DNA from: Escherichia coli
GTDB lineage: Bacteria > Pseudomonadota > Gammaproteobacteria > Enterobacterales > Enterobacteriaceae
DNA: 64,000 nucleotides
Reading direction: 5' to 3' (one strand)
Assembly: GCF_003991155.1 (NCBI RefSeq)
Contig: NZ_CP031293.1
The translations under genes and the position numbers were made by a program. The notes under the pieces are model-generated. The model did no database searches. It saw only the letters and a list, made by a program, of their open reading frames with translations, and was not told the origin of the DNA. Positions 11,988 through 35,131 of the stretch are shown here, one piece after another (within the stretch, counting starts at the first letter, position 1; every line of letters starts with the position of its first letter).

Positions 11988-12932
11988 ATGAGTCCTGATA
12001 ATATCGGTTCGGCTGTCAATCGCTTCTCAGGTTGGCCATCTAATGATCCTCTAAAAACAGATAACGAATCAATGACATCACCCGTGACTGTGCAGGTAAT
12101 AAAGATGATTGCCGCCATCCTTGACCCATATCGGATAGTCGTTGGAATCGATACACTTTATACAACGCAGCGCGAAACATTTACCTCAGAGAGTCAACAG
12201 CTCATTGAATCAGCATTGCAAACACTTCATGTGATAAATTTAAATAACCTGGAAACAAATCTCGATGAGGACGGTCACTATCTGGCTTTTGGATATAACG
12301 TTGACACTCCTGACAGAATAACCGTTTCTGCTTATAATGAAAAAAAGCCTGGCTGCTATGGCCAATGTCTTTTAATACAGGATGACGAAACAGACTTATT
12401 TAACCTGATAAAAGTTAAAATTTTTGAAGCCAGGCATAATTATGTCGCTCAATTGATGAGCGATCCGGAATTTATGTTCAAATTTAGTTATAGCGCTCAA
12501 CAAAATAGATTAGAACCTCATCTTCTGGTTCCCACTTATTTCCCTCTAAAAACAAACGAACCGGTTACGCAAGAGGATGTACTGTTACTTTATCGTTTCT
12601 TTAAAATGGATGGTGATTTTAATATATTAACATCAGATGAATACATGAGTATCATGACACCTCTGATGAAGTGTGAGCGCAGCATCCACGACCACAACAG
12701 GTATGTGACGGGCAAAGATACCCTTCTTCTGGACTATCCTCCTTCTGGTAACCAGATATATTTCCATATTTTTCCTGACGAATCAGCAACACTAGTCCTT
12801 TATTTTTCAAACAATGACATTGAATGTTTCGTCTTTGAAAGAGATATTCCGAGCCAGTATCGCTTTTTCAAAATGTTTACCAATCTGGCACTGGTTATTG
12901 ATCAGTTAACCGATGCCAATCAAATACTTTAA
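11988..12932 (+). CDS. Hypothetical protein, 314 aa, no recognised domain (orphan A)
   Basis: ATG preceded by GAGG 8 nt upstream, in an AT-rich, uninterrupted frame. The N-terminus is polar and Ser/Asn/Pro-rich. The exact hexapeptide YRFFKM occurs twice (codons at 12591-12608 and 12858-12875). Confidence 0.7.
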   Translation: MSPDNIGSAVNRFSGWPSNDPLKTDNESMTSPVTVQVIKMIAAILDPYRIVVGIDTLYTTQRETFTSESQQLIESALQTLHVINLNNLETNLDEDGHYLAFGYNVDTPDRITVSAYNEKKPGCYGQCLLIQDDETDLFNLIKVKIFEARHNYVAQLMSDPEFMFKFSYSAQQNRLEPHLLVPTYFPLKTNEPVTQEDVLLLYRFFKMDGDFNILTSDEYMSIMTPLMKCERSIHDHNRYVTGKDTLLLDYPPSGNQIYFHIFPDESATLVLYFSNNDIECFVFERDIPSQYRFFKMFTNLALVIDQLTDANQIL

Positions 12933-13012
12933 TTTTTATATATTCCCTGTGGCAAATATTGCTAAACAATGCCCGGGGATTAATTTTTATTACTCACGGA
13001 AAGATTTAAATA

Positions 13013-13435
13013 ATGATCCCATCTCAAATCTCTTTCAACACCCTTCCTGTCAATGCAACATACGCTTCAGAGACAACAGTTGACACACAAAAATTCTCTG
13101 ACATCCTCTACTCAGCGGGGTGTTCCCTAAAGGATCTGGCTTATCTGAGCAGATGTCTGGCATCAATACATCCGACTATCGCCAAAAACATTTATGAAAC
13201 AGAAAATCTCAGCGATCAAAAATTACTACATATTGATTGCCGTAGTACAAATGAAATCAAGATAAATATCTTTTTTGGTCAACAACGAGAAGGATTAATT
13301 GAAATTAATTCTGACACTGTCATTTTTTCGATATTGTCTTCATTAATTGACTCCGCCATTTCTAAATTTCAACACCAAATCCCCGTTAACGGTTCAGTTA
13401 ATCGTGAACTATTGTATGAGGATTATACTGATTAA
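13013..13435 (+). CDS. Hypothetical small acidic protein, 140 aa, no recognised domain (orphan B)
   Basis: Same strand as orphan A and 80 nt downstream of it, AT-rich. About 17 Asp/Glu versus 10 Lys/Arg by my count. The RBS is weak (ggaaag). Confidence 0.6.
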   Translation: MIPSQISFNTLPVNATYASETTVDTQKFSDILYSAGCSLKDLAYLSRCLASIHPTIAKNIYETENLSDQKLLHIDCRSTNEIKINIFFGQQREGLIEINSDTVIFSILSSLIDSAISKFQHQIPVNGSVNRELLYEDYTD

Positions 13436-13981: not shown

Positions 13982-14431
13982 ATGAAGAAAGCAACACTTG
14001 TGATTGGCGTTATTGGCGCGGACTGCCATGCAGTAGGCAATAAAGTTCTGGACCGCGTTTTTAGCAACCATGGCTTCAGAGTCATTAATCTGGGCGTAAT
14101 GGTCAGCCAGGACGAATATATTGATGCGGCCATTGAAACTGGCGCTGACGCGATTGTCGTCTCCTCTATCTATGGGCATGGCGATATCGACTGTCTGGGC
14201 ATGCGCGAACGCTGCATCGAGCGTGGACTGGGGGACATCCTGCTCTATGTGGGCGGTAACCTGGTGGTCGGAAAACATGACTTCGCTGACGTGGAAACCA
14301 AATTCAAAGAGATGGGATTTGATCGCGTCTTTGCCCCAAGTCATGACTTAGAAGATGTTTGTCAGCTGATGGCACACGATATCAACCAACGTCATGACGT
14401 TGATACTCGTATTCTTGAAGAGGCAATCTGA
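13982..14431 (+). CDS. glmS: Glutamate mutase sigma (B12-binding) subunit
   Basis: ORF trimmed to ATG 13982 (AAGGA 7 nt upstream). [24 protein letters not shown] carries the DxHxxG cobalamin-binding motif. Size and position match clostridial MutS/GlmS. This is not the glucosamine-6-P synthase glmS. Confidence 0.9.
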
Positions 14432-15819
14432 TGCAAATCGTCTCTGTCGATATTGGATCGACGTGGACCAAAGCAGCCCTCTTCGCCCGGGAGGGGGATG
14501 CGTTAACGTTGGTTAACCACGTACTGACCCCAACCACCACCCATCATCTGGCGAAGGGGTTTTTCTCCAGCCTGAACCTGGTGTTAAACGTAGATAATGC
14601 CCTCCCCCTGTTTAACAACGGTGAGGTTGCATTGAAGTATTCCTCCTCTGCCAAAGGTGGGCTGGCGGTTGCCGCAATGGGATTGGTGCCTTCTATCACC
14701 CTGGAAACCGCGAAAGTAACCGCTCACTCTGCGGGGGCTAAAATTGCGCAATATTACGCCTACAAGCTGAACCGCCGTGATATCCAGGCACTGGAAGAAA
14801 CGCAGCCCGATATTCTCTTGTTCACCGGCGGCACCGACGGCGGAGAAGAAAGCTACGGCCTGAATAACGCCCGTGTGCTGGCAGAATCCAAACTCGACTG
14901 CGCCATTATTTATGCCGGAAACCGGGATATTCAGGACGAGGTGCAGGAGATCCTAGGGCATAAAGACCTGACCATCGTCGACAACGTTCTGCCCGATCTT
15001 GACCATCCGAACCCTTTAGCTGCACGCCAGGCTATCTGCGACATATTCCTTAAACGCATCGTTAAAGGGAAAGGGCTGGATGTCGTTGTTGATAAAACAG
15101 GCGAAGAACCAATGCCGACACCGTGGACAGTCTTTGAACTGGTTAAGGCAATCAGTAATGTCGATCACAGCTGGAAAGAGTTCATGCTGATCGACATGGG
15201 TGGCGCAACCACCGATGTCTATTCCGCCTGTGCCAACACGCTCTCGCCCGACACCGTTTTACACGGCGTACCGGAACCCTTCGTGAAACGGACGGTGGAA
15301 GGCGATCTGGGAATGCGCGTCTCGGCAATGGTGGTTGGTGAAAGTGCGAAAGAGTTAGTCAATGTGAATTTTGCTCAGCAACCCGCACAGCTGGACGCTT
15401 TTTATCATTACCTCCGTCATCTAGTCGCTCATCCCGACTACTTACCCGCGAATGCAGAAGAAAAATATTTCGATACCGTCCTGGCCGGACTGTGTGTGGG
15501 TTATGCCACCGAAAGACATGCGGGCACCAAAAAAGAGGTCTGCACCTGCGTCGGCAATGTCGATTTACAGATGGGACGTGACCTGACAACCGTGCGTAAA
15601 GTCGTCGGATCCGGCGGATGGCTCTCGCGTGCCAGTCAGTTCGATATGCATCACTGGTTGAAATACCGCGAGTTAAACGACGACGGTAAACGCATTCTCT
15701 TACCGACCGAATTTGAATATTACCGCGATTCCCGGGGGCTATTACCACTGCTGGCAAACGTCGCCAGAGTCGATCCGCTGGCCGCCGCGCGCACCAGTAT
15801 TCAATGCTTAACCCTATAA
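14431..15819 (+). CDS. glmL: Glutamate mutase-associated MutL/GlmL (putative reactivating chaperone, ASKHA-type ATPase)
   Basis: 462 aa, starting [18 protein letters not shown] (actin-like ATPase phosphate-1 motif). It sits between the S and E subunits exactly as in Clostridium, and its start is coupled to the preceding stop (TGATG). Confidence 0.85.
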   Translation: MQIVSVDIGSTWTKAALFAREGDALTLVNHVLTPTTTHHLAKGFFSSLNLVLNVDNALPLFNNGEVALKYSSSAKGGLAVAAMGLVPSITLETAKVTAHSAGAKIAQYYAYKLNRRDIQALEETQPDILLFTGGTDGGEESYGLNNARVLAESKLDCAIIYAGNRDIQDEVQEILGHKDLTIVDNVLPDLDHPNPLAARQAICDIFLKRIVKGKGLDVVVDKTGEEPMPTPWTVFELVKAISNVDHSWKEFMLIDMGGATTDVYSACANTLSPDTVLHGVPEPFVKRTVEGDLGMRVSAMVVGESAKELVNVNFAQQPAQLDAFYHYLRHLVAHPDYLPANAEEKYFDTVLAGLCVGYATERHAGTKKEVCTCVGNVDLQMGRDLTTVRKVVGSGGWLSRASQFDMHHWLKYRELNDDGKRILLPTEFEYYRDSRGLLPLLANVARVDPLAAARTSIQCLTL

Positions 15820-15837: not shown

Positions 15838-17283
15838 ATGGAACTTCGAAATAAGAAATTAACCCATGACGAATTCATGACCGAGCGGCAACAGGTACTG
15901 AAAACCTGGGAAACCGGCAAGGATGTTGAAAACTTTGAAGATGGCGTTAAATACCAACAAACCATTCCTGAGCATAAACGCTTCTCTCTTGCCCTGCTGA
16001 AAGCAGACAAGGAAGGTAAAACTCTTAGCCAACCGCGCGCAGGCGTGGCGCTGATGGACGAACACATCGAACTACTGAAAACACTACAAGAAGAGTGCGA
16101 TCTGCTGCCGAGCACCATCGATGCATATACCCGTCTGAATCGGTACGAAGAAGCGGCTGTAGGGATTAAAAAATCCATCGAAGCCGGAACCTCTAAACTG
16201 AACGGTTTACCGGTCGTTAACCACGGCGTCGCAGCTTGCCGTCGCCTCACCGAAACTCTGCAAAAACCGCTACAGATCCGCCACGGCACGCCAGATGCGC
16301 GTCTGCTGGCTGAAATCTCGATGGCCAGCGGCTTTACCAGTTATGAAGGCGGCGGCATTTCCTACAATATTCCGTATGCCAAGCGCGTAACGCTGGAAAA
16401 ATCGATCCGCGACTGGCAGTACTGCGACCGTTTAATGGGGATGTATGAAGAACACGGGATCCGCATCAACCGCGAACCGTTTGGCCCACTAACGGGTACC
16501 CTGATCCCGCCGTTTATCTCGCACTCTATCGCGATAATCGAAGGCTTGCTGGCGCTGGAACAGGGTGTGAAATCTATCACCGTTGGTTATGGACAGGTCG
16601 GCAGCCTGACGCAGGATGTTGCGGCGATCCAGTCTCTGCGTGAACTTGCACACGAATATTTTCAGAGCTATGGCTATACCGACTATGAATTAAGTACCGT
16701 GTTTCACCAGTGGATGGGCGGCTTTCCGGAAGACGAATCGAAAGCGTTCGCTATTATCTCCTGGGGCGCAGCCGTCGCGGGGATGTCTGGTGCCACCAAA
16801 GTCATCACCAAAAGTCCGCACGAAGCCTGGGGCATCCCGACTGCCGCTGCCAACATTCAGGGGCTGAAAGCCTCCCGCCAGATGCTCAACATGGTCAACG
16901 AGCAGAAATTCCCGCCGTGCCCTGCGGTTGAACTGGAAATTGAACTGATTAAGAGCGAGGTTCGCGCGGTACTGAATAAAGTGTTCGAACTGGGTAATGG
17001 TGATATTGCGCGCGGTACGGTGCTGGCATTTGAAGCGGGCGTACTGGATGTGCCGTTTGCGCCAGCCGCCTGCAACGCGGGCAAAATTCTTCCGGTCCGT
17101 GACAACACCGGCGCGATACGCGTACTGGAAGCCGGAGCCGTTCCATTGCCAAAAGATATTCTCGACCTCCACCACGATTACGTTGCGGAACGCGCACGCT
17201 TTGAAGGACGCCAACCGACATTCCAGATGGTTGTAGATGACATCAATGCTGTATCCCACAGTAAATTAATAGGAAGACCATAA
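15838..17283 (+). CDS. glmE: Glutamate mutase epsilon (catalytic) subunit
   Basis: 481 aa. It aligns along its length with remembered C. cochlearium GlmE (MEL+NKK...QPRAGVAL+DEHIELL...PSTIDAYTR.NRY...FHQWMGGFP.DESKAF...SFQMV+DDI). Confidence 0.93.
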   Translation: MELRNKKLTHDEFMTERQQVLKTWETGKDVENFEDGVKYQQTIPEHKRFSLALLKADKEGKTLSQPRAGVALMDEHIELLKTLQEECDLLPSTIDAYTRLNRYEEAAVGIKKSIEAGTSKLNGLPVVNHGVAACRRLTETLQKPLQIRHGTPDARLLAEISMASGFTSYEGGGISYNIPYAKRVTLEKSIRDWQYCDRLMGMYEEHGIRINREPFGPLTGTLIPPFISHSIAIIEGLLALEQGVKSITVGYGQVGSLTQDVAAIQSLRELAHEYFQSYGYTDYELSTVFHQWMGGFPEDESKAFAIISWGAAVAGMSGATKVITKSPHEAWGIPTAAANIQGLKASRQMLNMVNEQKFPPCPAVELEIELIKSEVRAVLNKVFELGNGDIARGTVLAFEAGVLDVPFAPAACNAGKILPVRDNTGAIRVLEAGAVPLPKDILDLHHDYVAERARFEGRQPTFQMVVDDINAVSHSKLIGRP

Positions 17284-18524
17284 TGAAAATAAAACAGGCT
17301 CTGTTCACCGCTGGCTACTCCTCATTCTATTTCGATGACCAGCAGGCGATAAAAAACGGAGCGGGTCATGACGGCTTTTTTTATACCGGGGAGCCGGTAA
17401 CACAGGGGTTTAACGCCGTTCGTCAGGCCGGGGAGTGCGTATCAGTACAGTTGATTCTGGAAAACGGCTCGGTCGCCGTAGGTGACTGTGCTGCCGTACA
17501 GTATTCCGGGGCAGGTGGTCGCGATCCACTGTTCCTCGCTGAGCACTTTATTCCGTTCCTCAACGACCATATCAAGCCATTACTGGTAGGCCGCGATGTG
17601 GATGCTTTCCTGCCGAATGCCCGTTTCTTCGACAAATTGCGTATTGACGGCAACTTGCTGCATACCGCCGTGCGCTACGGATTATCACAGGCGCTGCTTG
17701 ATGCTACCGCGCTGGCAACCGGCCGTCTGAAAACTGAAGTAGTTTGCGATGAATGGCAGTTGCCACGCGTGGCGGAATCCATTCCATTATTTGGTCAGAG
17801 CGGGGACGATCGATATATCGCCGTCGATAAGATGATCCTTAAGGGCATCGACGTGCTGCCCCATGCACTGATTAATAACGTCGAAGAGAAACTGGGCTTT
17901 AAAGGTGAAAAACTGCGCGAATATGTCCGCTGGCTGTCGGATCGTATTCTGAGCAAGCGCACCAGCGCACGCTACCACCCTACCCTGCACATCGATGTAT
18001 ACGGCACTATCGGTCTGATCTTCGATATGGATCCGCTTCGCTGTGCGCAATACATCGCCAGCCTGGAAAAAGAAGCGCAAGGCCTGCCGCTCTACATTGA
18101 AGGGCCGGTCGATGCCGGTAACAAGCCCGATCAAATTCGCCTGCTGACCGCGATTACCAAAGAGCTGACGCGCCTCGGTTCCGGCGTGAAAATTGTGGCC
18201 GATGAATGGTGTAACACCTACCAGGATATTGTTGATTTCACTGATGCCGCCAGTTGTCACATGGTGCAAATCAAAACCCCGGATCTGGGCAGTATTCACA
18301 ACATCGTCGATGCGGTTCTTTACTGCAACAGCCACAGCATGGAAGCGTACCAGGGCGGCACCTGCAATGAAACTGATGTCAGTGCCCGCACCTGTGTCCA
18401 CGTCGCCCTTGCCGCTCGCCCTATGCGTATGCTGGTAAAGCCAGGGATGGGCTTTGACGAAGGCCTCGATATCGTCTTCAACGAAATGAATCGTACTATC
18501 GCGCTGTTGCAGGCTAAGGATTAA
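17283..18524 (+). CDS. mal: 3-Methylaspartate ammonia-lyase (methylaspartase)
   Basis: 413 aa. MKIKQALFTAGYSSFYFDDQQAIKNGAGHDGF matches the clostridial MAL N-terminus; enolase-superfamily fold. TAATG start/stop coupling with glmE. Confidence 0.92.
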   Translation: MKIKQALFTAGYSSFYFDDQQAIKNGAGHDGFFYTGEPVTQGFNAVRQAGECVSVQLILENGSVAVGDCAAVQYSGAGGRDPLFLAEHFIPFLNDHIKPLLVGRDVDAFLPNARFFDKLRIDGNLLHTAVRYGLSQALLDATALATGRLKTEVVCDEWQLPRVAESIPLFGQSGDDRYIAVDKMILKGIDVLPHALINNVEEKLGFKGEKLREYVRWLSDRILSKRTSARYHPTLHIDVYGTIGLIFDMDPLRCAQYIASLEKEAQGLPLYIEGPVDAGNKPDQIRLLTAITKELTRLGSGVKIVADEWCNTYQDIVDFTDAASCHMVQIKTPDLGSIHNIVDAVLYCNSHSMEAYQGGTCNETDVSARTCVHVALAARPMRMLVKPGMGFDEGLDIVFNEMNRTIALLQAKD

Positions 18525-18527: not shown

Positions 18528-19898
18528 ATGGCTCGTTCTTTTAAAGTCTTATCGCCAACGGCAATCCTCGGGTATGGATTCCCGGAAGAGAGCTTCCGCA
18601 AAGCGATGGCAGAATCGCCCGATCTGATCGCCGTTGATGCAGGCTCTTCCGATCCTGGCCCCCACTACCTCGGAGCGGGCAAACCGTTTACCGATCGCGC
18701 AGGGGTCAAGCGCGATCTGCGCTATATGATCACCGCAGGCGTGCAAAATAATATACCGGTGGTGATCGGAACAGCTGGCGGTTCTGGTGCCGCACCACAC
18801 CTGGAGTGGTGCCGAGAAATAATTCATGAGATTGCCCGGGAAGAGCGACTCGTGTTCTCGATGGCGCTGATCCCGGCAGACGTTGACAAAGCCATCGTCC
18901 ACCAGGCGCTGGATAACGGCAAAATCACGGCGCTGGATTTTGTCCCGCCGTTAACCCACGACGCGATTGACGAAAGTACGTATATCGTTGCGCAAATGGG
19001 CATCGAACCCTTCCAGCGGGCGCTGAAAGAAGGCGCGCAAGTGGTGCTGGGCGGGCGCGCTTACGACCCGGCCTGCTTTGCTGCGCTCCCGATCATGCAA
19101 GGCTTTGATGAAGGTCTGGCGCTGCATTGTGGGAAAATCCTTGAATGCGCGGCAATCGCCGCAACGCCCGGCTCAGGCTCTGACTGTGCGATGGGCATCA
19201 TTGATGACAACGGCTTTACGCTGAAGACATTTAATCCGAAGCGTAAATTTACCGAAACGTCAGCGGCTGCACACACACTGTATGAGAAATCCGATCCCTA
19301 CTTCCTGCCTGGACCTGGCGGCGTGTTGAACCTGAAAGGCTGCACATTTAAAGCGGTCAATGACGGCGAAGTGTACGTCAGCGGTTCTAAGCATGAAGAA
19401 ACGCCGTATGCCCTGAAACTGGAAGGTGCGCGACGGGTGGGCTTCCGCTGTCTGACCATCGCAGGAACGCGCGACCCGATCATGATCGCCGGGATCGATA
19501 AAATCATCGATGAAGTCAAAACCAGCGTTTCACGTAACCTGTCGCTCGACGATGACAGCATTCGCATCAATTTCCACCTGTACGGCAAAAACGGGGTGAT
19601 GGGCGACCATGAACCGATGCAAACTGCCGGGCATGAGCTGGGGATTGTCCTTGATGTAGTTGCACCGACCCAGGAAATTGCCAATAGCGTTTGCTCGCTG
19701 GTGCGCTCTACCATGCTGCACTACGGCTATGAAAACCGCATCGCTACCGCAGGCAATCTGGCGTTCCCGTTCTCCCCTTCTGATATCCAGGGCGGGCCGG
19801 TATACGAATTTTCCATATATCACCTGATTGAAGCCAACGACGCTCTGCGTTTTGATTTCCATATTGAACAGGTGACGCCAGAAGGAGTTCAGGCATGA
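18528..19898 (+). CDS. Conserved protein of unknown function, tentatively DUF1446/AtuA-like
   Basis: 456-aa ORF starting 3 nt after the mal stop. I recognise no catalytic motif. The family assignment is tentative and rests on pairing with the downstream DUF4387-like ORF. Confidence 0.8.
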   Translation: MARSFKVLSPTAILGYGFPEESFRKAMAESPDLIAVDAGSSDPGPHYLGAGKPFTDRAGVKRDLRYMITAGVQNNIPVVIGTAGGSGAAPHLEWCREIIHEIAREERLVFSMALIPADVDKAIVHQALDNGKITALDFVPPLTHDAIDESTYIVAQMGIEPFQRALKEGAQVVLGGRAYDPACFAALPIMQGFDEGLALHCGKILECAAIAATPGSGSDCAMGIIDDNGFTLKTFNPKRKFTETSAAAHTLYEKSDPYFLPGPGGVLNLKGCTFKAVNDGEVYVSGSKHEETPYALKLEGARRVGFRCLTIAGTRDPIMIAGIDKIIDEVKTSVSRNLSLDDDSIRINFHLYGKNGVMGDHEPMQTAGHELGIVLDVVAPTQEIANSVCSLVRSTMLHYGYENRIATAGNLAFPFSPSDIQGGPVYEFSIYHLIEANDALRFDFHIEQVTPEGVQA

Positions 19899-20212
19899 AA
19901 CAGTCAATTGTCTCACTGGCGCAAGTCATTCGTTCGAAAAATGCCGGACCTTACGAACTGGTTTTAGATATTTTATTTAAAACGAAAGAAAACTATGAGC
20001 GAGTTAAATCATCAGGGCAATTAACCCCAGAACTGATTGCGCGCTTATATCATGTTGAACCTGACTTTATTCACCGTATTGTCTGGTTTGATCCTTCTAA
20101 CGCAGTAAAAATCGTCATGCCACGAGATATTATCTCCGGGAATGTAGGTGACAATGATGTCTATGGTGCACAGCAACATGCACCTTTATTAAATATGAGT
20201 TTCGATTTGTAA
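19895..20212 (+). CDS. Conserved small protein, tentatively DUF4387 (AtuA C-terminal-like)
   Basis: 105 aa with an ATGA overlap onto the preceding ORF. The motifs IRSKNAGPYEL and DVYGAQQHAPLL resemble what I recall of DUF4387. Confidence 0.75.
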   Translation: MKQSIVSLAQVIRSKNAGPYELVLDILFKTKENYERVKSSGQLTPELIARLYHVEPDFIHRIVWFDPSNAVKIVMPRDIISGNVGDNDVYGAQQHAPLLNMSFDL

Positions 20213-24025: not shown

Positions 24026-24028
24026 TAA

Positions 24029-24060
24029 CTGCGCCTGGCATCCCGCCAGGCGCAGGTTTT
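24029..24060. terminator. Hairpin terminator between the convergent adenosyltransferase and LysR genes
   Basis: ctgcgcctggc-atccc-gccaggcgcag followed by gtttt, immediately after the 24025 stop. Confidence 0.7.
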
Positions 24061-25026: not shown

Positions 25027-25234
25027 CAACCAAAGCAGCAATCAATATTTTATAAAAATCATGTTCGATATTTATAACCTGGTAAGCCTGGCGTGACAAT
25101 TGTCTCAATCAGACAATAATAATCCGAAAAGCAAAACGCCCTTCGGATTATTATGATTCAAGTTAAGTGAAGATTATTAAATTGATAGCAATTATCATAT
25201 CTATGGATATTATGACAAACAATCAACAAAAATT

Positions 25235-26905: not shown

Positions 26906-26955
26906 TGTGTTTCCTTATCATGATGAGTTTAACAACGGGTTACTGCGACAACGTT

Positions 26956-27906
26956 TTAATTTGTTCTATCTGTTTTCCCCCGCCGGACAATACTGGTCAC
27001 CAGGCGAGCGGCAACTTTCGCAGTTAAATTATCGCGGTCCAGGTCCGGGTTAAGTTCGGCAATATCCGCAGCAATCAACTTCTCGCTACCGGCGATTAAA
27101 TTCACAATGGCTTCAGTAATATTTAACGGCACGCCTAACGGTGATGGAGCAGAAACACCGGGCGCCTGATAACCTGGTAAAACATCGAGACAAATCGTTA
27201 AATAAATGGCGTCACAAGCCTGAATATCTGCCGAGAGCGCATTAGCGATCTCATGCAAACCACGTTCAAATTGCAGAGATTCGTCCAGCCAATAACGCAC
27301 ACCGAGACAATCAGCGCGATCAAATAACGCCTGAGTATTGGCAAAACGACTTATTCCCAGCACGCGATAATGAAACGGTTTGCCATGCTGCGCGTTCCAC
27401 TCTTGCATCTGACGAAACGGCGTACCTGAATTGGCTTGTTCCGCCATCCGTAAATCAAAATGCGCGTCAAGGTTCACAATCAGTAACCGCTGAATATCCG
27501 GACGCGACTGCATAATCCCCTGAAATGTTCCCCACGCCACTTCATGACCGCCCCCCAGAACCACCGGTAAACTGCCGCGCGCAATGGCTGTAGATACGTT
27601 AGCCGCCAGACGATTTTGTGCGGATTCCAGCGCGTGGTCCTCGCTTTGTACATCGCCCATATCGAAAATAGCGCCTTCACAGAGCACTGGCATATTTCCC
27701 AACATGCTGCGCAACGCGCCCGGTCCGCCTGCTGCACCCGCTCGCCCATCATTACGTTGCACTCCGTCATCAACGGCAAAACCAATCAGCGTACAACCGC
27801 CGTGGCTTTGTTCACTAAACGGTTGCACATGCTGATGCCAGCGAGTGCTGATGCCGGTTTCCTGCGAGTCAACACGCCCACTCCACGGCAAAAATGTTTG
27901 CTTCAT
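26956..27906 (-). CDS. hutG: Formimidoylglutamase (arginase fold)
   Basis: Start trimmed to ATG 27906 (AAGGAG upstream; TAATG overlap with the hutI stop). 316 aa with Mn-site motifs GGGHEVAWG, DAHFD and CLDVL. Confidence 0.88.
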   Translation of the reverse strand: MKQTFLPWSGRVDSQETGISTRWHQHVQPFSEQSHGGCTLIGFAVDDGVQRNDGRAGAAGGPGALRSMLGNMPVLCEGAIFDMGDVQSEDHALESAQNRLAANVSTAIARGSLPVVLGGGHEVAWGTFQGIMQSRPDIQRLLIVNLDAHFDLRMAEQANSGTPFRQMQEWNAQHGKPFHYRVLGISRFANTQALFDRADCLGVRYWLDESLQFERGLHEIANALSADIQACDAIYLTICLDVLPGYQAPGVSAPSPLGVPLNITEAIVNLIAGSEKLIAADIAELNPDLDRDNLTAKVAARLVTSIVRRGKTDRTN

Positions 27907-29117
27907 TACCAACTCCTTTTTCCGCCGACAATAAGCCCCTGGCAAGGCTGATGCCCAAACCAGTAAGCCAGTTCACGTGGATGATTAAGATCCCAGACCG
28001 CCATATCCGCCCGTAATCCCGGTGCAAGTTCACCCCGGTCAATAAGTCCAAGTGCCTTTGCCGCATTACGCGTAACGCCCTGAACGGCTTCCAGCGGCGT
28101 CATGCGAAACAGCGTACAGGCCATATTGATCATCAATGGCAATGACATATTGGGAGACGTTCCGGGATTATGGTCCGTGGAGATAGCAATCGGCACACCT
28201 GCGGCCCGCAGAGCGACAATCGGCGGCAGATGGGTTTCGCGCAGGAAGTAATAAGCACCGGGAAGCAAAACCGCCACTGTTCCAGCCGCTTTCATGGCGG
28301 CGATCCCCGACTCGCTCAGGTACTCCAGATGATCGCAGGAGAGTGCAGAAAACGCCGCTGCCAGCGCCGCGCCTTGCTGGTCAGAAAGCTGTTCGGCATG
28401 CAGTTTTACAGGTAATCCATAGCTTTGCGCTTTACTGAAAACGCGCCGTACCTGCTCTGGAGTAAAGGCGATGTTTTCACAAAAAGCATCAACTGCATCA
28501 ATCAGCCCCTGTTCATGCAACACGCACATCCAGTCGCAAAGCGCCGTAATGTAATCATCACTGCGCCCGGCAAACTCTGGCGGCAGGCTGTGCGCCCCGA
28601 GAAACGTAGACTGAATATGTAACCCGGTAGATTGCTGCAAGCGGCGGATCACGCGTAAACAACGTGCTTCATCTTCCAGCGTTAAGCCATAACCCGATTT
28701 GATTTCAAGCGTACTGACGCCTTCACGTTGCCAGTTTCGCAGTCGCTGCGCCGCCAGTTCAAACAACTGTGTTTCGCTGGCTGCCCGCGTGGCATTAACC
28801 GTAGATAAGATCCCGCCGCCCGCTCTGGCGATATCTTCATAAGCCACGCCTTGCAACCGCATCTCAAACTCGTTCGCCCTCTGGCCGCCATACACCAGAT
28901 GTGTATGACAATCCACCAGACCGGGTGTCAGCAACTTACCCTGTAGATCGTGTTCCTCTGTAATATCAGCCGTCAGTTCACGGGGGATCTGCGTGGCCTT
29001 CCCAAGCCAGACAATCGAGTCACCACGGCTGATTAATGCCCCCTTTTCAATCACTCCCCAATCGTTAGCGGAAAGCGTCGCCAGCGTGGTATTTCGCCAG
29101 AGCGTTAATGCACTCAT
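27906..29117 (-). CDS. hutI: Imidazolonepropionase
   Basis: Start trimmed to ATG 29117 (ATGA overlap with the hutD stop). 403 aa; VDCHTHLVYGG metal site; amidohydrolase fold. Confidence 0.9.
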   Translation of the reverse strand: MSALTLWRNTTLATLSANDWGVIEKGALISRGDSIVWLGKATQIPRELTADITEEHDLQGKLLTPGLVDCHTHLVYGGQRANEFEMRLQGVAYEDIARAGGGILSTVNATRAASETQLFELAAQRLRNWQREGVSTLEIKSGYGLTLEDEARCLRVIRRLQQSTGLHIQSTFLGAHSLPPEFAGRSDDYITALCDWMCVLHEQGLIDAVDAFCENIAFTPEQVRRVFSKAQSYGLPVKLHAEQLSDQQGAALAAAFSALSCDHLEYLSESGIAAMKAAGTVAVLLPGAYYFLRETHLPPIVALRAAGVPIAISTDHNPGTSPNMSLPLMINMACTLFRMTPLEAVQGVTRNAAKALGLIDRGELAPGLRADMAVWDLNHPRELAYWFGHQPCQGLIVGGKRSW

Positions 29118-29704
29118 AAGGATTTTTCCCCTCGTAGATAATAAAGCCACCAGCCCGCCAGCTCACCGACGGAGACTTTCTTCCGTGGTACGAAACGCCA
29201 GGGCCTGCCATCAGGTGCAACCAGCCATAACAACATATTTGCCGCGACAAACACCCTTTTCTTGCCGCTTATCCACTCCCCTTCACACAGCGTGAACAGG
29301 CCCGCTTGCGCAAGTGACGGAGGACGCCAGTCAACGGCACTTTGCACCCGCAACATCCCCGCATCGCCTTCCCGCGCCATAACATTCAGATCGCGAACCC
29401 CGCCGCCCAGCAGCTGGCAATCAGGCATAGCTTCTCCAGGGAAAATTAAGGCGGGATCGTGACGTTGCAGGTTGATGATCGAATCGGCAAACGTTAGCTT
29501 CACCCCTTCCCCGTCGAGAATCGCGAGGCCACGAACCACGCCAGGCCACGCTGAAAAAGAGCCATCCTGACTGACATTCGCCATACTGATGCGCAACAAC
29601 CAGTTTTCATCATCGGGCCAGGCAAGCAGCTGTCGGGTAAACCCCCCGCCGTTGCGCCACGGTTGCAGCGGCTTATCCATTGCAGAAATCAGCATCGGTT
29701 CCAT
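29114..29704 (-). CDS. hutD: HutD-family protein
   Basis: 196 aa. The WRNGGGFTRQL motif and bicupin size are typical of HutD. It starts 1 nt after the permease stop. Confidence 0.8.
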   Translation of the reverse strand: MEPMLISAMDKPLQPWRNGGGFTRQLLAWPDDENWLLRISMANVSQDGSFSAWPGVVRGLAILDGEGVKLTFADSIINLQRHDPALIFPGEAMPDCQLLGGGVRDLNVMAREGDAGMLRVQSAVDWRPPSLAQAGLFTLCEGEWISGKKRVFVAANMLLWLVAPDGRPWRFVPRKKVSVGELAGWWLYYLRGEKSL

Positions 29705-29705
29705 A

Positions 29706-31115
29706 TTAAGACTCGGGATAAATCGTATAAGCAGGAACGCAGGTGGTGCGTTTGGCCCACGGGTAATAGATAACGGCGGTAATTAACAAGCCGACAATCC
29801 AGGAGATATCCGCCCCATCCATCAGGACAGAAATGGGTCCCTGATACAGTTTTTGATTCAGGAAGGGGATCTGCACCAACACGCCTACGCCATAGCACGT
29901 CAAAGCGGTTTTGTTATACGCGCCATAACGCCCTTCCGGGGTATAAAGTGCCGGAATATCGGTTTTACCTTGTGAGATGAAGTAGTAGTCGATGAGATTA
30001 ATGGCGCTCCACGGCACAAATACCGTCAACAGCAGCAGAACGAAGTTTTTGAAATTATTCAAAAAATCTGCGCTTGCCGCCAGCGCGACGACCATCGACA
30101 ACAGCACGAACCCTACAACGTAGGCAGCACGAACACGCTGTGAAACCTGACTGCGATTATTAAAGGCGCTGACGGTCGCCAGAATCGACATAAAGCCACC
30201 GTAGGCATTCAAACAGTTCACCGTCAGTTTGCCGCAAACAATCACCGTATAAATCAGAATGGCGAAGGTGGGTCCGGCTAACTCACCCATAAAACCAACC
30301 TGATCCTTCAGGAAGTTAGCACCACAGGCCGCAACAAGCACGCCAAACGTCATGGCACATTGCGCGCCAAGCGTGGTTCCCAGAAAGGTGGCAAAGAAGA
30401 TTGATTTTGCTGGCGTATCAGAGGGTAAATAGCGGGAATAATCAGAGGCGTAAGGGGCAAACGTTAATTGCCATCCGGCAGAGAGAGCAATCGTTAATAA
30501 AAAGACCGACAGACTAAATGGCTTTTGACCAAATGCCGCAGCCACATCGTAGTGACCGCTAAGTTGAGTGGCCAGGTAAATAAACCCCAGAATACTTAAT
30601 ATCCCTGCAACACGGCCAACGACGTGAATAAGTTTATAACCGACCAATGCGATCATCGCGGTCAGCATGCCGAAAATAATAATTCCGGTCGATGCCGATT
30701 CGAAACCAAATATCCGGTTAATCGCCTGACCGGATAATACTGTACCCGTCGCGGCAAATCCAAGGTACATAATAATCACCATCAGTAACGGTAGCGCCGC
30801 TCCTTTAACGCCAAAGCGGATACGACTGGAGATCATCTGGGGTAATCCCAGCTTTGCCCCCTGCGACGAGTGCAATGCCATTACTGCACCACCAATAATA
30901 TTACCGATTAATAAACCAATTATTGCTGACATGGCTTCGGAGCCAAAAATAATCGCTAACGCGCCGTCCACCACAGCGGTAATTTGTAAGTTAGCACTTA
31001 GCCATAAAGTAAACTGACTGGATGGCGAGCCGTGGCGAGCAGACTCAGGAACGGCGTTAATCGTATTTGATTCTAATACTGGCTTTTTACTGCGGATAGG
31101 GCTGCTTGATTCCAT
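29706..31115 (-). CDS. NCS1/purine-cytosine permease family transporter, candidate urocanate importer
   Basis: Start trimmed to ATG 31115 (AGGAG 8 nt upstream). 469 aa, about 12 TM segments. Pseudomonas hut clusters carry an NCS1 permease next to hutU that has been linked to urocanate uptake. Confidence 0.8.
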   Translation of the reverse strand: MESSSPIRSKKPVLESNTINAVPESARHGSPSSQFTLWLSANLQITAVVDGALAIIFGSEAMSAIIGLLIGNIIGGAVMALHSSQGAKLGLPQMISSRIRFGVKGAALPLLMVIIMYLGFAATGTVLSGQAINRIFGFESASTGIIIFGMLTAMIALVGYKLIHVVGRVAGILSILGFIYLATQLSGHYDVAAAFGQKPFSLSVFLLTIALSAGWQLTFAPYASDYSRYLPSDTPAKSIFFATFLGTTLGAQCAMTFGVLVAACGANFLKDQVGFMGELAGPTFAILIYTVIVCGKLTVNCLNAYGGFMSILATVSAFNNRSQVSQRVRAAYVVGFVLLSMVVALAASADFLNNFKNFVLLLLTVFVPWSAINLIDYYFISQGKTDIPALYTPEGRYGAYNKTALTCYGVGVLVQIPFLNQKLYQGPISVLMDGADISWIVGLLITAVIYYPWAKRTTCVPAYTIYPES

Positions 31116-31278
31116 GAAAAAGTCTCCTGCAAAATGAGAGGTCATTTTTTGAAACAGCAATAGAGGGTCGGGAGATATTTCTCTCGACGATGTAAAAATA
31201 TTTTTTGATAATTATTGTTATACAGGCGAATTATTCTCCGCCTGTATTAGCGCAAATATTAAATGACGGCGTTAATAT

Positions 31279-32976
31279 TTAGCGAATCATCGGTAATTTC
31301 AGACCATAGTTTTTGGCACATTCAATTGCCGCTTCATAACCCGCATCCGCATGACGCATAACCCCGGACGCACAGTCATTCACCAGCACACGCGCCAGAC
31401 GTTTTTCGGCTTCTTCGCTACCATCGGCAACAATAACCATCCCGGCGTGTTGTGAATACCCCATCCCGACGCCGCCGCCATGATGCAGGGATACCCACGT
31501 TGCTCCCCCTGCAGTGTTGAGCAAACCGTTGAGCAACGGCCAGTCAGAAACCGCATCACTGCCATCAAGCATGCTTTCGGTTTCGCGGTTCGGGCTGGCG
31601 ACAGAACCGGTATCAAGATGATCGCGCCCAATCACAATCGGTGCTTTTAGTTCACCGTTGCGCACCATTTCGTTGAATGCCAGCCCCGCCAGGTGACGCT
31701 CACCAAGCCCCAGCCAGCAAATACGTGAAGGAAGTCCCTGGAAGGCAATGCGCTCGCGCGCCATATCCAGCCAGCGATGCGTCAGTACGTTATTGGGGAA
31801 CAACTCTTTAATTTTGGCATCAGTTTTATAGATATCTTCCGGGTCGCCAGACAGCGCCACCCAACGGAATGGACCTTTGCCTTCACAAAACATTGGACGA
31901 ATATAAGCCGGAACAAAGCCCGGGAAATCAAAGGCATTTTGCAGACCTTCGTTGAAGGCCACCTGGCGGATGTTGTTGCCATAATCGACAACCGGGATCC
32001 CCATCGCCTGGAAGTCCAGCATCCCCTGAACATGTGCGACGCAGCTCTGTGCCGCTTCTTTTTGCAATCTGGCGTGTTGCTGTGGATCCTGCTGTGCAGC
32101 GCGCCATTGTTCTACGCTCCAGCCCATCGGTAGGTAGCCATAAACCAGATCGTGAGCGGAAGTCTGGTCGGTCACCAGATCCGGCTTGATCGCCCCCTGA
32201 CGTGCACGTTTCACCAGTTCAGGAACAATTTCCGCCGCATTGCCCAACAGCGCGATTGAAACAGCGTCTTTGCGCTCAGTATGGTATTTAATCAGCGCCA
32301 GTGCATCATCGAGATCTTTCGCTTGTTTATCGACATAACGGGTACGCAGACGGAAGTCGATGCTACTTTGCTGGCACTCGATATTTAATGAACACGCCCC
32401 CGCCAGAGTCGCCGCCAGCGGTTGTGCACCGCCCATACCACCTAGCCCTGCGGTCAGGATCCATTTTCCACTCAGCGAATTGTTGTAGTGCTGACGACCC
32501 GCTTCAACAAAGGTTTCGAACGTTCCCTGCACAATGCCCTGACTACCGATGTAGATCCACGAGCCAGCGGTCATCTGGCCGTACATGAACAGACCTTTAC
32601 GATCCAGTTCATTGAAATGATCCCAGTTGGCCCATTGCGGTACCAGGTTAGAGTTGGCAATCAATACGCGCGGCGCATCGGTATGCGTTTTAAACACGCC
32701 TACGGGTTTACCGGACTGAACCAGCAGTGACTCATCAGCTTCCAGATTTTTCAGTGATTCAAGGATTTTGTCAAAACACTCCCAGTTACGTGCCGCACGA
32801 CCAATACCACCATACACCACCAGATGCTGTGGATTTTCGGCAACGTCGGGATCAAGGTTGTTCTGCAACATCCGATAGGCAGCTTCGATCTGCCAGTTTT
32901 TGCAGTGCAGCTGCGTACCGTGTGGCGCATGGATTACACGGCTGGTATCAATACGCGGGTCTGAAGGCTTACTCAT
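31279..32976 (-). CDS. hutU: Urocanate hydratase
   Basis: Start trimmed to ATG 32976 (AGGAGA upstream). 565 aa with the [18 protein letters not shown] site. Urocanase family throughout. Confidence 0.93.
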
Positions 32977-33733
32977 GAATCTTCTCCTGTTACTTGATAA
33001 AATTAAACGCTGTAATCGGTCAGAAAAAACGAACGAATGAATATAGAAACGGTTTCTATAATTCCCGTTTATCATTTTGTATTATTAATTCATTTAGTGA
33101 ATATTGTTTGTCGTGGTATATTCACTATGAATATAAATTCAAAACCACCAACGCGTTGTATGCGAATTCAATATGCTTAATTTAACTTGTCGAAAAAGTG
33201 ATATTGTTGGCAAAATATTTTCTAATTTGAACATATGAATATGATGAGATTGCAAGATGTCAGTAATTTAATTATATGAGAAATGCGTTAATAACGACCA
33301 GATATTAGCGTAACAACAGGTGTTCCGACACCACACAGTGCGCATAACACAATGATATTTAAAATAAGATCTTCATTATTCGTCATAAAGACATGTTTTA
33401 TTATCATTAATAATCCATTTGTTTTCATCCCACTTTTGATAATTAAAAAACGGCAACAATGGATAGTTACCCGACGTAAAAACAGGCGTAAAAATAAATC
33501 TTAAAATATATCCACTGGAAATTATCATTTTTCATATTTTACAATCTGGCGTCGATAACTGACCCCTTTTATAACACCCCCGTTTGTTAATAGTCTTTTT
33601 TATCTTGTATTGATCGTCATTGCTGCATACACTACGCGCGTTTTCTTTCCCTTTTGCTGGCTGCTGACCGGAAAGACAAAATTACCCTCGCAATAAAGGG
33701 GGTTGTTTAACGTCTATATTTCAGGACAGCGTT

Positions 33734-35131
33734 ATGCATCATCTTTCAAGGCTTGATAAAGCCTTTCTGCGCAAAGGGATCCAACTTTCCCGCGCCAACA
33801 ATATTGTTTCATTATGTCGTCCATCAGGAGCCAGTGCCCACGTACTGCTGCCGGACGAACTGCCGCTGGAAGAAAAAGCAGTGACACAACTGCTTGATTT
33901 TGCAGAAGTGAAGATACCAGACCATCCAGGTTACGTACGCCAGACCTGTGCGACGCCAGATTTTCATCCCGGCAATGGCGTCCCCGTTGGCGCGGTAGTC
34001 GCCTCTACGCCGGATTTAGTCATTCCTGCGGCCATCGGCACCGATATTTCTTGTGGCATGCGGCTGCTGACGACCGGATTAACACTTGAGCAAGCCGAAG
34101 CGAATAAAGAAATAATCACTCAGCGGTTAACACAAGTGTTACTGCAAAATGAGCGCGATGTTCCGTTATCCGCACGAGCGTTCACCGCGCTTTTTGATGG
34201 CGGACCGGCAGATTGCATGTCGGCCTTGCCATCAGCAGGTCTCTGGACACGTACAAATATCCCCCGAATGACGCAAGAGATTGACCGCTGCATTGGGCTT
34301 AACGAGCATAACAGTCATTCGCGTTATGCCCCACCCGCCCTACTGGTAACGGACCGCCCATTACTCCGCGATCCTTGTCTTGGTACGCCGGGTTCAGGTA
34401 ATCATTTTATTGAACTTCAGGTGGTTGATAGCGTGGTTGATCGCCATGTTGCCTGGCAACAAGGGCTGAAAACGGGCGATATTGTGGTGATGATCCACAG
34501 TGGATCGCGAGATGTTGGCTTTTACGTCGGAAGACGCTGGATGGATCGCGCCCGTGCTGAATGGCCCACCGGACATAAACATCCACAAAGCGGGTTATAT
34601 GGCCTGGCAGGCGGACTGGCGGAGGAATATCTACAAGCGATGGGAATGGCGGCGCGTTACGCGTGGTTAAATCGCGTCACAATTGCCGAAATGGTGCGCG
34701 TATGTCTTGCCAATCTCTTTCATCAGGACAATTCGCATCTGGTGGTGGATGTGCCGCATAACATCATCCTTCGCGAGCATGAAATGAATATTCATCGCAA
34801 AGGTGCAACACCGGCACGCGCGGGCAATCTGGCGTTAATCCCCGGTTCAATGGGCGATTATTCGTGGCTTGCAGTCGGTTGCGGCAACCCGGAGTGGCTG
34901 TGGTCTTGCAGTCACGGAGCAGGACGCAGCCAGCGTCGGCAGGCCATGCACTCACGCGCGACTGAAGAGTCAACGTTGCCGTGGCAATGCGTCACATTGC
35001 GCGAAGAACGGCGTATTGAAGAAGCGCCAGCTGCTTATAAAGATATTGGTCCGGTTATCGAAGCCCAACAAGAGGCCGGATTAATTCATCCAGCGGTTAG
35101 ATTCCGACCGTGGTTAACGTTTAAGGCATAA
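33734..35131 (+). CDS. RtcB-family RNA 3'-phosphate ligase paralogue (stand-alone)
   Basis: 465 aa. RtcB signature blocks are conserved: PDFHPG, GTDISCGMR, GSGNHFIELQ, IHSGSRDVG, PHNII, HRKGATPA, IPGSMG, SHGAGR. Confidence 0.88.
   Translation: MHHLSRLDKAFLRKGIQLSRANNIVSLCRPSGASAHVLLPDELPLEEKAVTQLLDFAEVKIPDHPGYVRQTCATPDFHPGNGVPVGAVVASTPDLVIPAAIGTDISCGMRLLTTGLTLEQAEANKEIITQRLTQVLLQNERDVPLSARAFTALFDGGPADCMSALPSAGLWTRTNIPRMTQEIDRCIGLNEHNSHSRYAPPALLVTDRPLLRDPCLGTPGSGNHFIELQVVDSVVDRHVAWQQGLKTGDIVVMIHSGSRDVGFYVGRRWMDRARAEWPTGHKHPQSGLYGLAGGLAEEYLQAMGMAARYAWLNRVTIAEMVRVCLANLFHQDNSHLVVDVPHNIILREHEMNIHRKGATPARAGNLALIPGSMGDYSWLAVGCGNPEWLWSCSHGAGRSQRRQAMHSRATEESTLPWQCVTLREERRIEEAPAAYKDIGPVIEAQQEAGLIHPAVRFRPWLTFKA

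Follow-up and report, generated by a model that had tools for sequence, protein, structure and literature searches.

We analysed a window of 64,000 bp from Escherichia coli (contig NZ_CP031293.1), in which an island of 23,572 bp (positions 11559-35130) lies between cydA and sucD. By BLAST, the similarity to E. coli K-12 MG1655 is lost after position 11558 on the cydA side and comes back at position 35131 on the sucD side, and the K-12 counterpart is an interval of 5,936 bp that contains mngR, mngA and mngB. The island has 19 coding sequences (CDS), all intact according to the annotation of the identical strain 2016C-3878 by the NCBI Prokaryotic Genome Annotation Pipeline (PGAP) (NZ_CP029747.1; 100% identity to the window over 7200-40000, an IS1A element aside) and to family scans, and no mng sequence was found in the window by comparison with K-12. 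A reading made from the letters alone (hereafter the sequence-only reading) had placed in this gap 19 open reading frames (ORFs) foreign to K-12 and no mng gene, and both the MG1655 alignment and the annotation agree with it. The interval that it gave, 11988-35131, runs from the first ATG to the last stop codon, but the left breakpoint lies 430 bp further left. Its right edge, a terminator in the sucD 3' untranslated region (UTR), was correctly recognized, as 35131-35158 is the terminator of the small RNA (sRNA) SdhX in the K-12 annotation. The backbone, which it took to be intact up to both edges, is so on the sucD side, but the cydA regulatory region (11200-11558) is only 77-80% identical to K-12. 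We consider it likely that this island is an old composite cargo, sited in a permissive gap and preserved here in the most complete form that survives, and not a mobile element, that strains differ at this locus by loss and by haplotype exchange, and that a betaine-fed pathway, itself a more tentative proposal, can be read from its genes. The features of the locus are the following.

9614..11185, minus strand: cydA, the left core flank, annotated in the identical strain; 97-100% identity to K-12 per 100 bp
11186..11987, no strand: cydA upstream (regulatory) region and left junction, guanine plus cytosine (GC) content 0.33; dimorphic in E. coli
11988..12932, plus strand: hyp1, orphan ORF of 314 aa, GC 0.385; no Pfam, NCBIfam or PHROG match
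13013..13435, plus strand: hyp2, orphan ORF of 140 aa, GC 0.364; no family match
13982..14431, plus strand: glmS, B12-binding subunit S of glutamate (methylaspartate) mutase (PF02310 and PGAP name)
14431..15819, plus strand: glmL (mutL), reactivating chaperone of the mutase (PF13941, E 5e-139)
15838..17283, plus strand: glmE, mutase subunit E (TIGR01503, 865 bits for a cut-off of 390)
17283..18524, plus strand: mal, methylaspartate ammonia-lyase (TIGR01502, 544 bits for a cut-off of 286)
18528..20212, plus strand: pair of AtuA-like (DUF1446) and DUF4387 genes (PF07287, PF14330; GC of the DUF4387 gene 0.387)
20373..21653, plus strand: dicarboxylate/amino acid:cation symporter, GltP-like (PF00375, E 2e-102)
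21761..23413, plus strand: fumD, class I fumarase/mesaconase (NF011921, 1286 bits for a cut-off of 1060)
23423..24025, plus strand: cobO, cob(I)alamin adenosyltransferase (PF02572)
24059..24964, minus strand: LysR-family regulator between the two operons (PF00126, PF03466; GcvA-like, below cut-off)
25235..26905, minus strand: lyase of the histidine ammonia-lyase (HAL) family with a predicted signal peptide and no 4-methylideneimidazole-5-one (MIO) motif, annotated as a histidine/phenylalanine/tyrosine (HAL/PAL/TAL) ammonia-lyase (PF00221 fold; motif and ergothionase match)
26956..27906, minus strand: hutG, formimidoylglutamase (TIGR01227, 292.7 bits for a cut-off of 229)
27906..29117, minus strand: hutI, imidazolonepropionase (TIGR01224, 451 bits for a cut-off of 298)
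29114..29695, minus strand: gene of a HutD-family protein (PF05962)
29706..31115, minus strand: NCS1-family permease, putatively for urocanate uptake (PF02133; under all NCBIfam equivalog cut-offs)
31279..32976, minus strand: hutU, canonical urocanate hydratase (TIGR01228, 934 bits for a cut-off of 375)
32977..33733, no strand: AT-rich divergent spacer between hutU and rtcB, GC 0.325; similar again to the hut-less strain 405 from 33626 on
33734..35131, plus strand: rtcB-family RNA ligase gene, orphan, 465 aa (PF01139)
35121..35131, no strand: putative deletion junction, the last rtcB codons (AAG GCA TAA) being fused to the mngR 3' end of other strains, by comparison with strain 405
35131..35229, minus strand: SdhX sRNA (sucD 3' UTR), with a bidirectional terminator hairpin at 35137-35154; 98-100% identity to K-12 sdhX (b4764)
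35230..36099, minus strand: sucD, the right core flank, annotated in the identical strain

The modules of the locus were counted over 5,426 complete E. coli genomes, with a threshold of at least 80% coverage for the whole island. The mngRAB genes are present in 3,887 genomes, the methylaspartate block in 1,138, a tetratricopeptide repeat (TPR) gene in 1,114, rtcB in 296, the hut-like block in 144 (about 2.6-2.7%, with alleles at ≥99% identity in 41 and at 95-99% in 103) and the whole island in 142. At least seven configurations of the gap were read in E. coli (mes, the methylaspartate block).

K-12: sucD-mngRAB-cydA
Strain 405: cydA-hyp1-hyp2-mes-LysR-rtcB-mngB-mngA-mngR-sucD
O145/O157 type: cydA-hyp-mes-LysR-sucD
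N68, type strain and Nissle type: cydA-TPR-sucD
AH20J067: sucD-mngRAB-TPR-cydA
E2348/69: cydA-hyp1-hyp2-glmS-ISEc13-mngA'-mngR-sucD
E. coli GTDB representative: gap nearly empty
Window and CLSC36: full island

Several of these types carry scars of the fuller arrangement. The 118-bp junction of O145 and its adjoining sequence match window positions 25301-25372 and 25715-25776 in the lyase gene and 34858-34914 and 35090-35130 in rtcB, with E values from 1e-9 to 1e-43, and the nearly empty GTDB representative retains the rtcB upstream region (33626-33716) together with the last 20 nt of rtcB beside the terminator. In the methylaspartate locus of O145:NM FWSEC0002 (5814-11323 within its extracted locus), hyp2, glmL and mal are annotated as frameshifted, which is consistent with a decay of the pathway once the hut module was gone. 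The window has its own junction at the other end of the cargo. It reads TTTAAGGCATAAAAAAAGG, the end of rtcB being ...TTTAAG GCA TAA AAAAAGG, and in strain 405 the sequence after rtcB is TTTAAGGGGTAA and the end of mngR is GATAAGCATAAAAAAGG, with a TAAG microhomology common to both sides. The rtcB-terminator junction of the window, found identically in CLSC36 and in the O145 scar, is best read from this comparison as a 5.6-kb deletion of mngBAR at the TAAG microhomology. Because mngR abuts the sucD terminator in all the genera that have mng, such a deletion is more parsimonious than an insertion of mngRAB. The sequence-only reading had suggested a locus replacement by recombination in the flanks, and a replacement of mngRAB by the island in one step is not supported, given the coexistence of both in strain 405, the mngBAR deletion junction, the scars of the O157 type and the old arrangement in the relatives described below.

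In all the locus types examined, the sequence switches at most a few bases away from the T-run of the SdhX terminator. In strains 405 and AH20J067, mngRAB lies between two hairpins of the same stem, GGCCATC...GATGGCC, one being the mngB terminator and the other the SdhX terminator (26590-26607 and 32119-32136 within the extracted locus of 405, 14516-14533 and 8975-8992 within that of AH20J067), whereas K-12 has only the SdhX one. The TPR-only type of N68 looks like the product of a hairpin-to-hairpin deletion between the mngB and SdhX terminators. Strain 405 also has 463 bp between LysR and rtcB (24536-24998 within its extracted locus) with no match in the hut block, of which the 28 bp proximal to rtcB are common with the nearly empty GTDB representative; this stretch may be either a state that preceded the hut insertion or a replacement.

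The K-12 haplotype stands apart from these types. Over the approximately 380 bp upstream of cydA, K-12 and the window share 77% identity, so that K-12 is as far from the window here as other genera are (62-81%). Between 11200 and 11558 the identity is 77-80% and no similarity to K-12 extends past 11558, whereas the TPR-type strain N68 remains similar to the window up to about position 11823. The other E. coli types share 96-97% identity with the window allele of this region, and Escherichia sp. MOD1-EC7003 shares 98%. Among the 5,426 genomes, the identity of this region to K-12 is ≥99% in 3,178, 95-99% in 2, 90-95% in none and 80-90% in 2,234. The mngRAB allele of K-12 is 95% identical to the one in strain 405 and 91% identical to the one in AH20J067, and the 470 bp between K-12 mngB and the cydA upstream region have no match in any island version. 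Because this 470-bp spacer lacks any island match and the cydA upstream region has diverged, K-12 is not a deletion product of the island, and a derivation of that kind was rejected. From these comparisons K-12 appears as a separate, low-diversity and deeply diverged haplotype, in which both the mngRAB allele and the region upstream of cydA are its own; it probably took the place of the island type via recombination over the whole interval. A replacement of the whole locus through recombination is a better fit to the K-12 haplotype than to the island. The coding flanks of the window have an ordinary identity to K-12, 97-100% right to the junctions, the cydA upstream region excepted. A raised divergence of the coding flanks, considered as a sign of recent import, was not seen, and the average "flank identity" of 92% includes the diverged piece upstream of cydA. 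K-12, the laboratory reference, is then the odd haplotype at this locus, with a cydAB regulatory region about 20% off that of approximately 41% of E. coli genomes, and what has been learned on cydAB regulation in K-12 may not transfer to these approximately 41% of strains.

Outside E. coli, the island arrangement was found in two further settings. A contig of a distant relative (from Logan) has the gene order cobO-LysR-lyase-hutG-hutI-hutD-NCS1-hutU-rtcB-TPR and then the SdhX terminator, in collinearity with window 23717-35129 and with a nucleotide identity of 79-81% overall and of 72-86% per gene. Contigs that encode HutU and that their sources name E. albertii (E. albertii-type) have the order sdhAB-sucABCD-(258-aa exported protein)-hutU-NCS1-(hutD)-hutI-hutG-lyase-LysR-fumD-symporter, and their island genes are 80-90% identical to those of the window, compared with 94-96% for the suc genes. 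Because the E. albertii-type and distant-relative loci share the arrangement beside sucD, the linkage of methylaspartate, LysR, hut and rtcB genes appears, on sequence comparison, to be older than E. coli. In the same way, the 90%-identity clusters of the lyase and of HutU take in E. marmotae, E. albertii and several unnamed Escherichia clades. The relatives of the lyase are at 96-100% identity in E. coli and E. marmotae, then come proteins at 85% and 68%, and the named non-Escherichia proteins start from about 62%; in a search for a donor, the gene contexts of the 85% and 68% homologues were unrelated. That the island is old in the genus is well supported, and its inheritance there was presumably vertical. 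The E. albertii-type locus, the distant relative and the scars indicate an ancestral arrangement and a derived or replaced K-12 state, which the sequence-only reading itself had named as a finding that would go against it. The 258-aa exported protein of the E. albertii-type locus (contig 8318-9094) has no Pfam match and occupies the rtcB slot by the SdhX terminator, and cobO is missing there between fumD and LysR.

The gap was also compared in 80 Enterobacterales loci around cydA, scored with the window, K-12 and N68 proteins. No cargo gene was detected in about 50 of the 80 loci, in which sucD lies within approximately 1.2 kb of cydA; these comprise most Pantoea, Erwinia, Serratia, Yersinia, Pectobacterium, Brenneria, Xenorhabdus and Tatumella and many Enterobacteriaceae. 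The mngRAB genes occupy the gap in K-12 orientation in Enterobacter mori and RIT637, Superficieibacter, Atlantibacter, Franconibacter and Pseudescherichia vulneris, with mngR at 93-122 bp from sucD in every genus with mng where sucD was seen, and they lie beside cydA in Pluralibacter and Scandinavium, where sucD falls outside the stretch examined. A methylaspartate cluster with glmS nearest to cydA, like in the window, is found in Citrobacter youngae, Klebsiella oxytoca, K. grimontii, Pseudescherichia and Escherichia sp. MOD1-EC7003, and a TPR gene in Pectobacterium brasiliense; one Enterobacter metagenome-assembled genome has a methylaspartate cluster and mngRAB in the reverse order. Across the order, cargo genes have repeatedly found a place between the sucD terminator and the regulatory region of cydA. 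A 416-kb plasmid of Salmonella Macclesfield (NZ_CP022118.1, 230959-242113) carries a methylaspartate/FumD cluster at 79% nucleotide identity, and such a megaplasmid is one possible vehicle for moving the methylaspartate module between genera.

The absence of an integrase, transposase, insertion sequence (IS) end, tRNA target or flanking direct repeat, noted from the letters alone, was borne out by the Pfam, NCBIfam and PHROGs, tRNA and repeat searches, and neither an att-like repeat nor an integrase remnant came to light. None of the 19 CDS matches an integrase, transposase, recombinase or excisionase in Pfam, NCBIfam or PHROGs, the two orphan ORFs being unclassified, and no phage matched the region; among its proteins, only the RtcB family as such recalls a phage function. 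E. coli genomes carry the region as a single copy, with a median of 1 place and a maximum of 2 in a genome. Its three E. coli "plasmid" matches consist of two records of 4.9 Mb, evidently mislabelled chromosomes, and a third of 730 kb. The only tRNAs of the window, at 1383-2086, are 9.5 kb from the island, no repeats beyond chance-sized matches bracket it, and the AT-rich spacers contain just short ORFs without notable features. The hairpin motif of the SdhX terminator occurs once in the window and is otherwise at chance level. A 16/18 inverted match joins 12030-12047, codons 15-20 of hyp1, to 35141-35158, the sucD-proximal half of the SdhX terminator, close to both ends of the island; it is probably due to chance (rough chance estimate of about 4e-3 in the boundary zones).

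The composition is mosaic, as the sequence-only reading had it, with a GC by gene of 0.385 for hyp1, 0.364 for hyp2, 0.387 for the DUF4387 gene, 0.445 for lysR and 0.49-0.57 for the enzyme genes, and of 0.30-0.33 in four intergenic spacers. Its description of both ends as AT-rich does not hold for the right one, where rtcB has a GC of 0.53 and the AT-rich part is the spacer 32977-33733. Among the classical features of genomic islands, an atypical composition (GC 0.30-0.57) and a presence/absence polymorphism are found here, and an integrase and a tRNA/att association are absent.

Signs of homologous recombination were found within the locus. Between the window and CLSC36, parts of the lyase gene, hutI, hutU and rtcB show 20-40 mismatches per 500 bp, and the stretches in between show 0-2, and the site patterns of four strains over the methylaspartate block and the left flank give 55 sites for one tree and 12 incompatible ones. 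Homologous recombination acts on the locus, on the basis of this mosaic of single-nucleotide differences in the hut block and of two deep haplotype families in E. coli. The proposal that the island originated via recombination in the flanks rather than by site-specific insertion is thus kept in so far as nothing points to site-specific integration and recombination is at work, without the one-step replacement.

In the history that we favour, modules of different origin would have gathered in the gap in the Escherichia lineage, namely the two AT-rich orphan ORFs, the B12-dependent methylaspartate operon with LysR, the hut-like operon, rtcB, the TPR gene in some lineages, and mngRAB. Two strongly conserved core units enclose the gap, which would be the only permissive place between them: on one side the cydA regulatory region, on the other the sdh-suc operon with the SdhX terminator at its end. 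E. coli strains would then have shed different parts through illegitimate, short-repeat-mediated or IS-mediated deletions, and whole haplotypes would have been swapped by homologous recombination through the flanking core genes. The lineage of the window would have retained the orphans, the methylaspartate genes, LysR, hut and rtcB and lost mngBAR, which would have fused the end of rtcB to the SdhX terminator. Several observations weigh against this history. The mngR scar is only about 4-5 nt long, and K-12 has no island scars, so a simple deletion from the island cannot yield the K-12 state. Transfer via recombination in conserved flanks could also give the same locus in different species, and in Escherichia sp. 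MOD1-EC7003 the identity to the window is 97-99% for the cyd-tol flank but only 77-95% for the methylaspartate genes; therefore island alleles moved between lineages or predate the species.

Three other histories were weighed against this accumulation followed by loss. A ready-made 23-kb island from another lineage could have replaced mngRAB in a single double crossover in cydA and sucD, which would agree with the lack of mobility genes and att sites, with flanks that are long near-identical core operons, with the sharply bounded block by which K-12 and the window differ, and with the documented hotspots free of mobile genetic elements (MGEs) that recombine in their flanks (PMC5635113). We regard it as very unlikely, however, since the island and mngRAB stand together in strain 405 and as a remnant in E2348/69, the junction at 35121-35131 resembles a microhomology deletion within a composite locus, the flank identity to K-12 is ordinary up to the junctions except upstream of cydA, and the island is old in the genus. 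The window lineage might instead have lost the island and re-acquired it by homologous recombination from an E. coli or other Escherichia lineage, so that the block would be young in this strain. The patches of 5-8% divergence between near-identical stretches of the hut block in the comparison with CLSC36, the MOD1-EC7003 island alleles far more diverged than their flanks, and the occurrence of the island in only 2.6% of genomes with at least two allele classes (41 at ≥99%, 103 at 95-99%) would fit such a return. The predominance of one tree pattern in the four strains, the about equal closeness of window and CLSC36 in the flanks and in the island outside the patches, and the absence of raised flank divergence speak against it, and we hold it to be rather unlikely.

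A third history, in which the modules first entered by a site-specific or transpositional mechanism that has since decayed, with the SdhX terminator hairpin as target, appears to us the least probable. It would account for the switch of sequence of all cargo types at the terminator T-run, for the same-stem hairpins that bracket mngRAB in 405 and AH20J067 and for the 16/18 inverted match. But neither a recombinase gene nor a remnant of one was seen in the approximately 10 locus versions examined, IS elements occur only as secondary insertions, K-12 lacks the second hairpin, the motif is found just once in the window and otherwise at chance level, the 16/18 match falls within the hyp1 coding sequence, and selection to keep the SdhX terminator would also explain the common boundary. 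The accumulation of modules followed by differential loss and haplotype exchange, which we retain as the likely history, would make this locus a clean example of how an "island without mobility genes" arises, as modules pile up in a gap and are then sorted by differential deletion with datable scars and by exchange of haplotypes.

Concerning the island genes, hutU, hutI, hutG, mal, glmE and fumD passed the curated cut-offs, and HutU scored 670 bits with the thiourocanate hydratase model, below its cut-off of 930. The relatives of RtcB form a group at 83-94% identity, of which one is named E. coli, followed by proteins at ≤67% in Betaproteobacteria and Pseudomonas. The homologues of hyp1 are few, at 64-98% identity and from E. 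coli where named, with an additional 49% tblastn match in Escherichia sp. MOD1-EC7003. An AlphaFold2 model of hyp1 from a 4-sequence alignment had a predicted local distance difference test (pLDDT) score of 42.7, too poor for a fold search, and hyp1 and hyp2 stay unclassified. An Rfam search of 10500-36500 at gathering thresholds gave no match, hence no B12 riboswitch and no family match over SdhX. The IS1A of strain 2016C-3878 lies at window position 13395-13404, where hyp2 ends, and its 10-bp overlap fits a target duplication. It is missing from the window, so the window stems from a close relative of that strain and not from its assembly.

The lyase encoded at 25235-26905 does not read as a true histidine ammonia-lyase. 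Its motif is GSIGAA-DIML, compared with GSVGASGDLA in HAL, i.e. Ala-Ser-Gly is changed to Ala-Ala with a one-residue gap, and because the Ala-Ser-Gly motif is missing, the enzyme cannot form the MIO cofactor; none of the 21 aligned homologues has it (21/21). The score with the hutH equivalog is 281 bits, under the cut-off of 539, and the best match in the PDB is the ergothionase of T. denticola (6s7j, E 5.5e-85, compared with 6.7e-50 for HAL). Members of this family without MIO remove trimethylamine from histidine betaines, and Lys384 of the Treponema enzyme marks ergothioneine specificity, the enzymes for sulfur-free substrates having Asn or Gln (bioRxiv 10.1101/2025.08.13.670108; 10.64898/2026.04.22.720169). 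The residues Y77, H117, Q308, R314, N339 and E466 are invariant in the clade and match those listed for Swoo_3913. At the position of Lys384 the window lyase has Ile438, with SLHI where most homologues have AIQK (Lys). The N-terminus, MKGLIRRVTVTVVLWSVCSIAMA|K, would be a Sec signal peptide, like those of the Shewanella enzymes, and an AGGA Shine-Dalgarno sequence precedes its ATG, none being found before the internal Met. From these features, the protein is probably a periplasmic histidine-betaine trimethylammonia-lyase mis-annotated as a histidine ammonia-lyase, and its predicted substrate is most likely a sulfur-free histidine betaine, hercynine.

On this basis, a pathway can be proposed. 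The periplasmic lyase would split a histidine betaine, hercynine most likely, into urocanate and trimethylamine, and the NCS1 permease would import urocanate, which HutU, HutI and HutG would convert into L-glutamate and formamide. From glutamate, the mutase GlmS/E/L, for which CobO would provide coenzyme B12, would then lead together with methylaspartase and FumD to mesaconate and (S)-citramalate, and the LysR gene between the two operons is a candidate regulator. The coupling of Hut and methylaspartate steps has a precedent in the oxidative histidine fermentation route of gut anaerobes (2026 preprint), and FumD of E. coli O157:H7 is a mesaconase/fumarase (Kronen and Berg 2015, PMC4682846). 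We suggest, as a tentative scheme that may well prove incorrect, that a minority of E. coli and other Escherichia might carry an unrecognised three-stage pathway, from a dietary or fungal histidine betaine to trimethylamine and urocanate, then to glutamate and then through methylaspartate fermentation. Some points do not sit well with it. Ile at the Lys384 position is unlike the Asn or Gln of both characterised lyases for sulfur-free substrates, and the closest relatives without Lys, from Enterococcus, lie in a different gene context that gave no clue to the substrate. LysR is not transcribed divergently from either operon, and in the work of Kronen and Berg the methylaspartate genes, whose cluster was found in 26.5% of E. 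coli strains, could not be induced and the fate of (S)-citramalate was left open (PMC4682846).

If the scheme is true, the enigmatic methylaspartate cluster of enterobacteria would be fed by a physiological source, its O157-type form would be what is left of the pathway as it decays, and Escherichia would have a gene family for trimethylammonia-lyase activity. The predicted pathway supplies a testable inducer and substrate for a cluster of long-open role. The lyase is a candidate Escherichia source of gut trimethylamine, and it may offer a starting point for explaining an early report that E. coli has ergothionase-type activity (Wolff 1962, as cited in PMC13405746). A 2026 review reports no ergothionase or trimethylammonia-lyase homologue recognised in E. 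coli annotations. Our search of the accessible literature library found no description of a betaine/Hut-methylaspartate coupling in Escherichia and nothing relevant on hut genes in E. coli phylogroups, and it gave only noise for DUF4387/AtuA.

Two other variable places were seen in the window. The tRNA-Lys/tRNA-Val array at 1383-2086 has 7 genes, compared with 9 and another spacing in strain N68, and the similarity to K-12 is broken at 1400-2011. Beside gltA, a block of about 8 kb (46807-54756) replaces the K-12 fimbrial operon ybgD-ybgQ-ybgP-ybgO and matches CLSC36, in which the part of the counterpart that was examined is annotated with tripartite ATP-independent periplasmic (TRAP) transporter, UxaA-family, short-chain dehydrogenase/reductase (SDR), alcohol dehydrogenase and RraA-family genes.

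Among the known systems, the periplasmic trimethylammonia-lyases of Shewanella (HBTL Swoo_3913, ergothionase SO_3057 and SO_3299) and the ergothionase 6s7j share with the window lyase the HAL fold without the MIO motif, the catalytic Tyr and the carboxylate- and imidazole-binding residues, and a signal peptide, which is a predicted one in the window lyase; the Shewanella homologues are 53-56% identical to it. The characterised enzymes have Lys, Asn or Gln at the Lys384 position, unlike the Ile of the window lyase, the activity of which is a prediction from its sequence. In Shewanella the partner is a flavocytochrome/urocanate reductase for respiration, whereas the window has a permease and HutU/I/G, an assimilatory route to glutamate. 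Compared with the canonical Hut operons of Klebsiella, Salmonella and Pseudomonas, the island has the HutU, HutI and HutG equivalogs and a HutD-family protein, but neither a MIO-containing HutH nor a HutC repressor, and its first enzyme is predicted to be periplasmic.

The methylaspartate part has the same genes in the same order as the cluster that Kronen and Berg described in O157:H7 and other Enterobacteriaceae (PMC4682846), glmS-glmL-glmE-mal-DUF1446-(DUF4387)-gltP-like-fumD-cobA/O followed by the LysR-type transcriptional regulator (LTTR) gene, and those authors do not mention a linkage with hut. Its nucleotide identity to the O145 copy, at the same chromosomal site, is 98.3%; glmL and mal are frameshifted in O145, whereas the cluster of the window is fully intact, and the O157-type locus retains only scars of the hut-like operon and rtcB, to which the window cluster is joined. 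With the mngR-mngA-mngB locus of K-12, the island has in common the chromosomal gap and the SdhX terminator that it abuts, but no gene, and the cydA upstream regions are 77-80% identical.

MGE-free hotspots that diversify through recombination at flanking core genes are on record (Oliveira et al. 2017, PMC5635113). Like these, the locus is bounded by core genes, holds many gene contents in one species, has neither integrase nor transposase and bears signs of recombination. It differs from them in that much of the diversity would come from differential loss from a composite ancestor, with scars, and not from repeated gain, and in that the sucD-cydA gap is in use across many genera. As an island, the window locus is an ordinary member of this known class; what is new here is the mis-annotated lyase and the physical coupling of a predicted betaine-fed Hut route to the methylaspartate operon.

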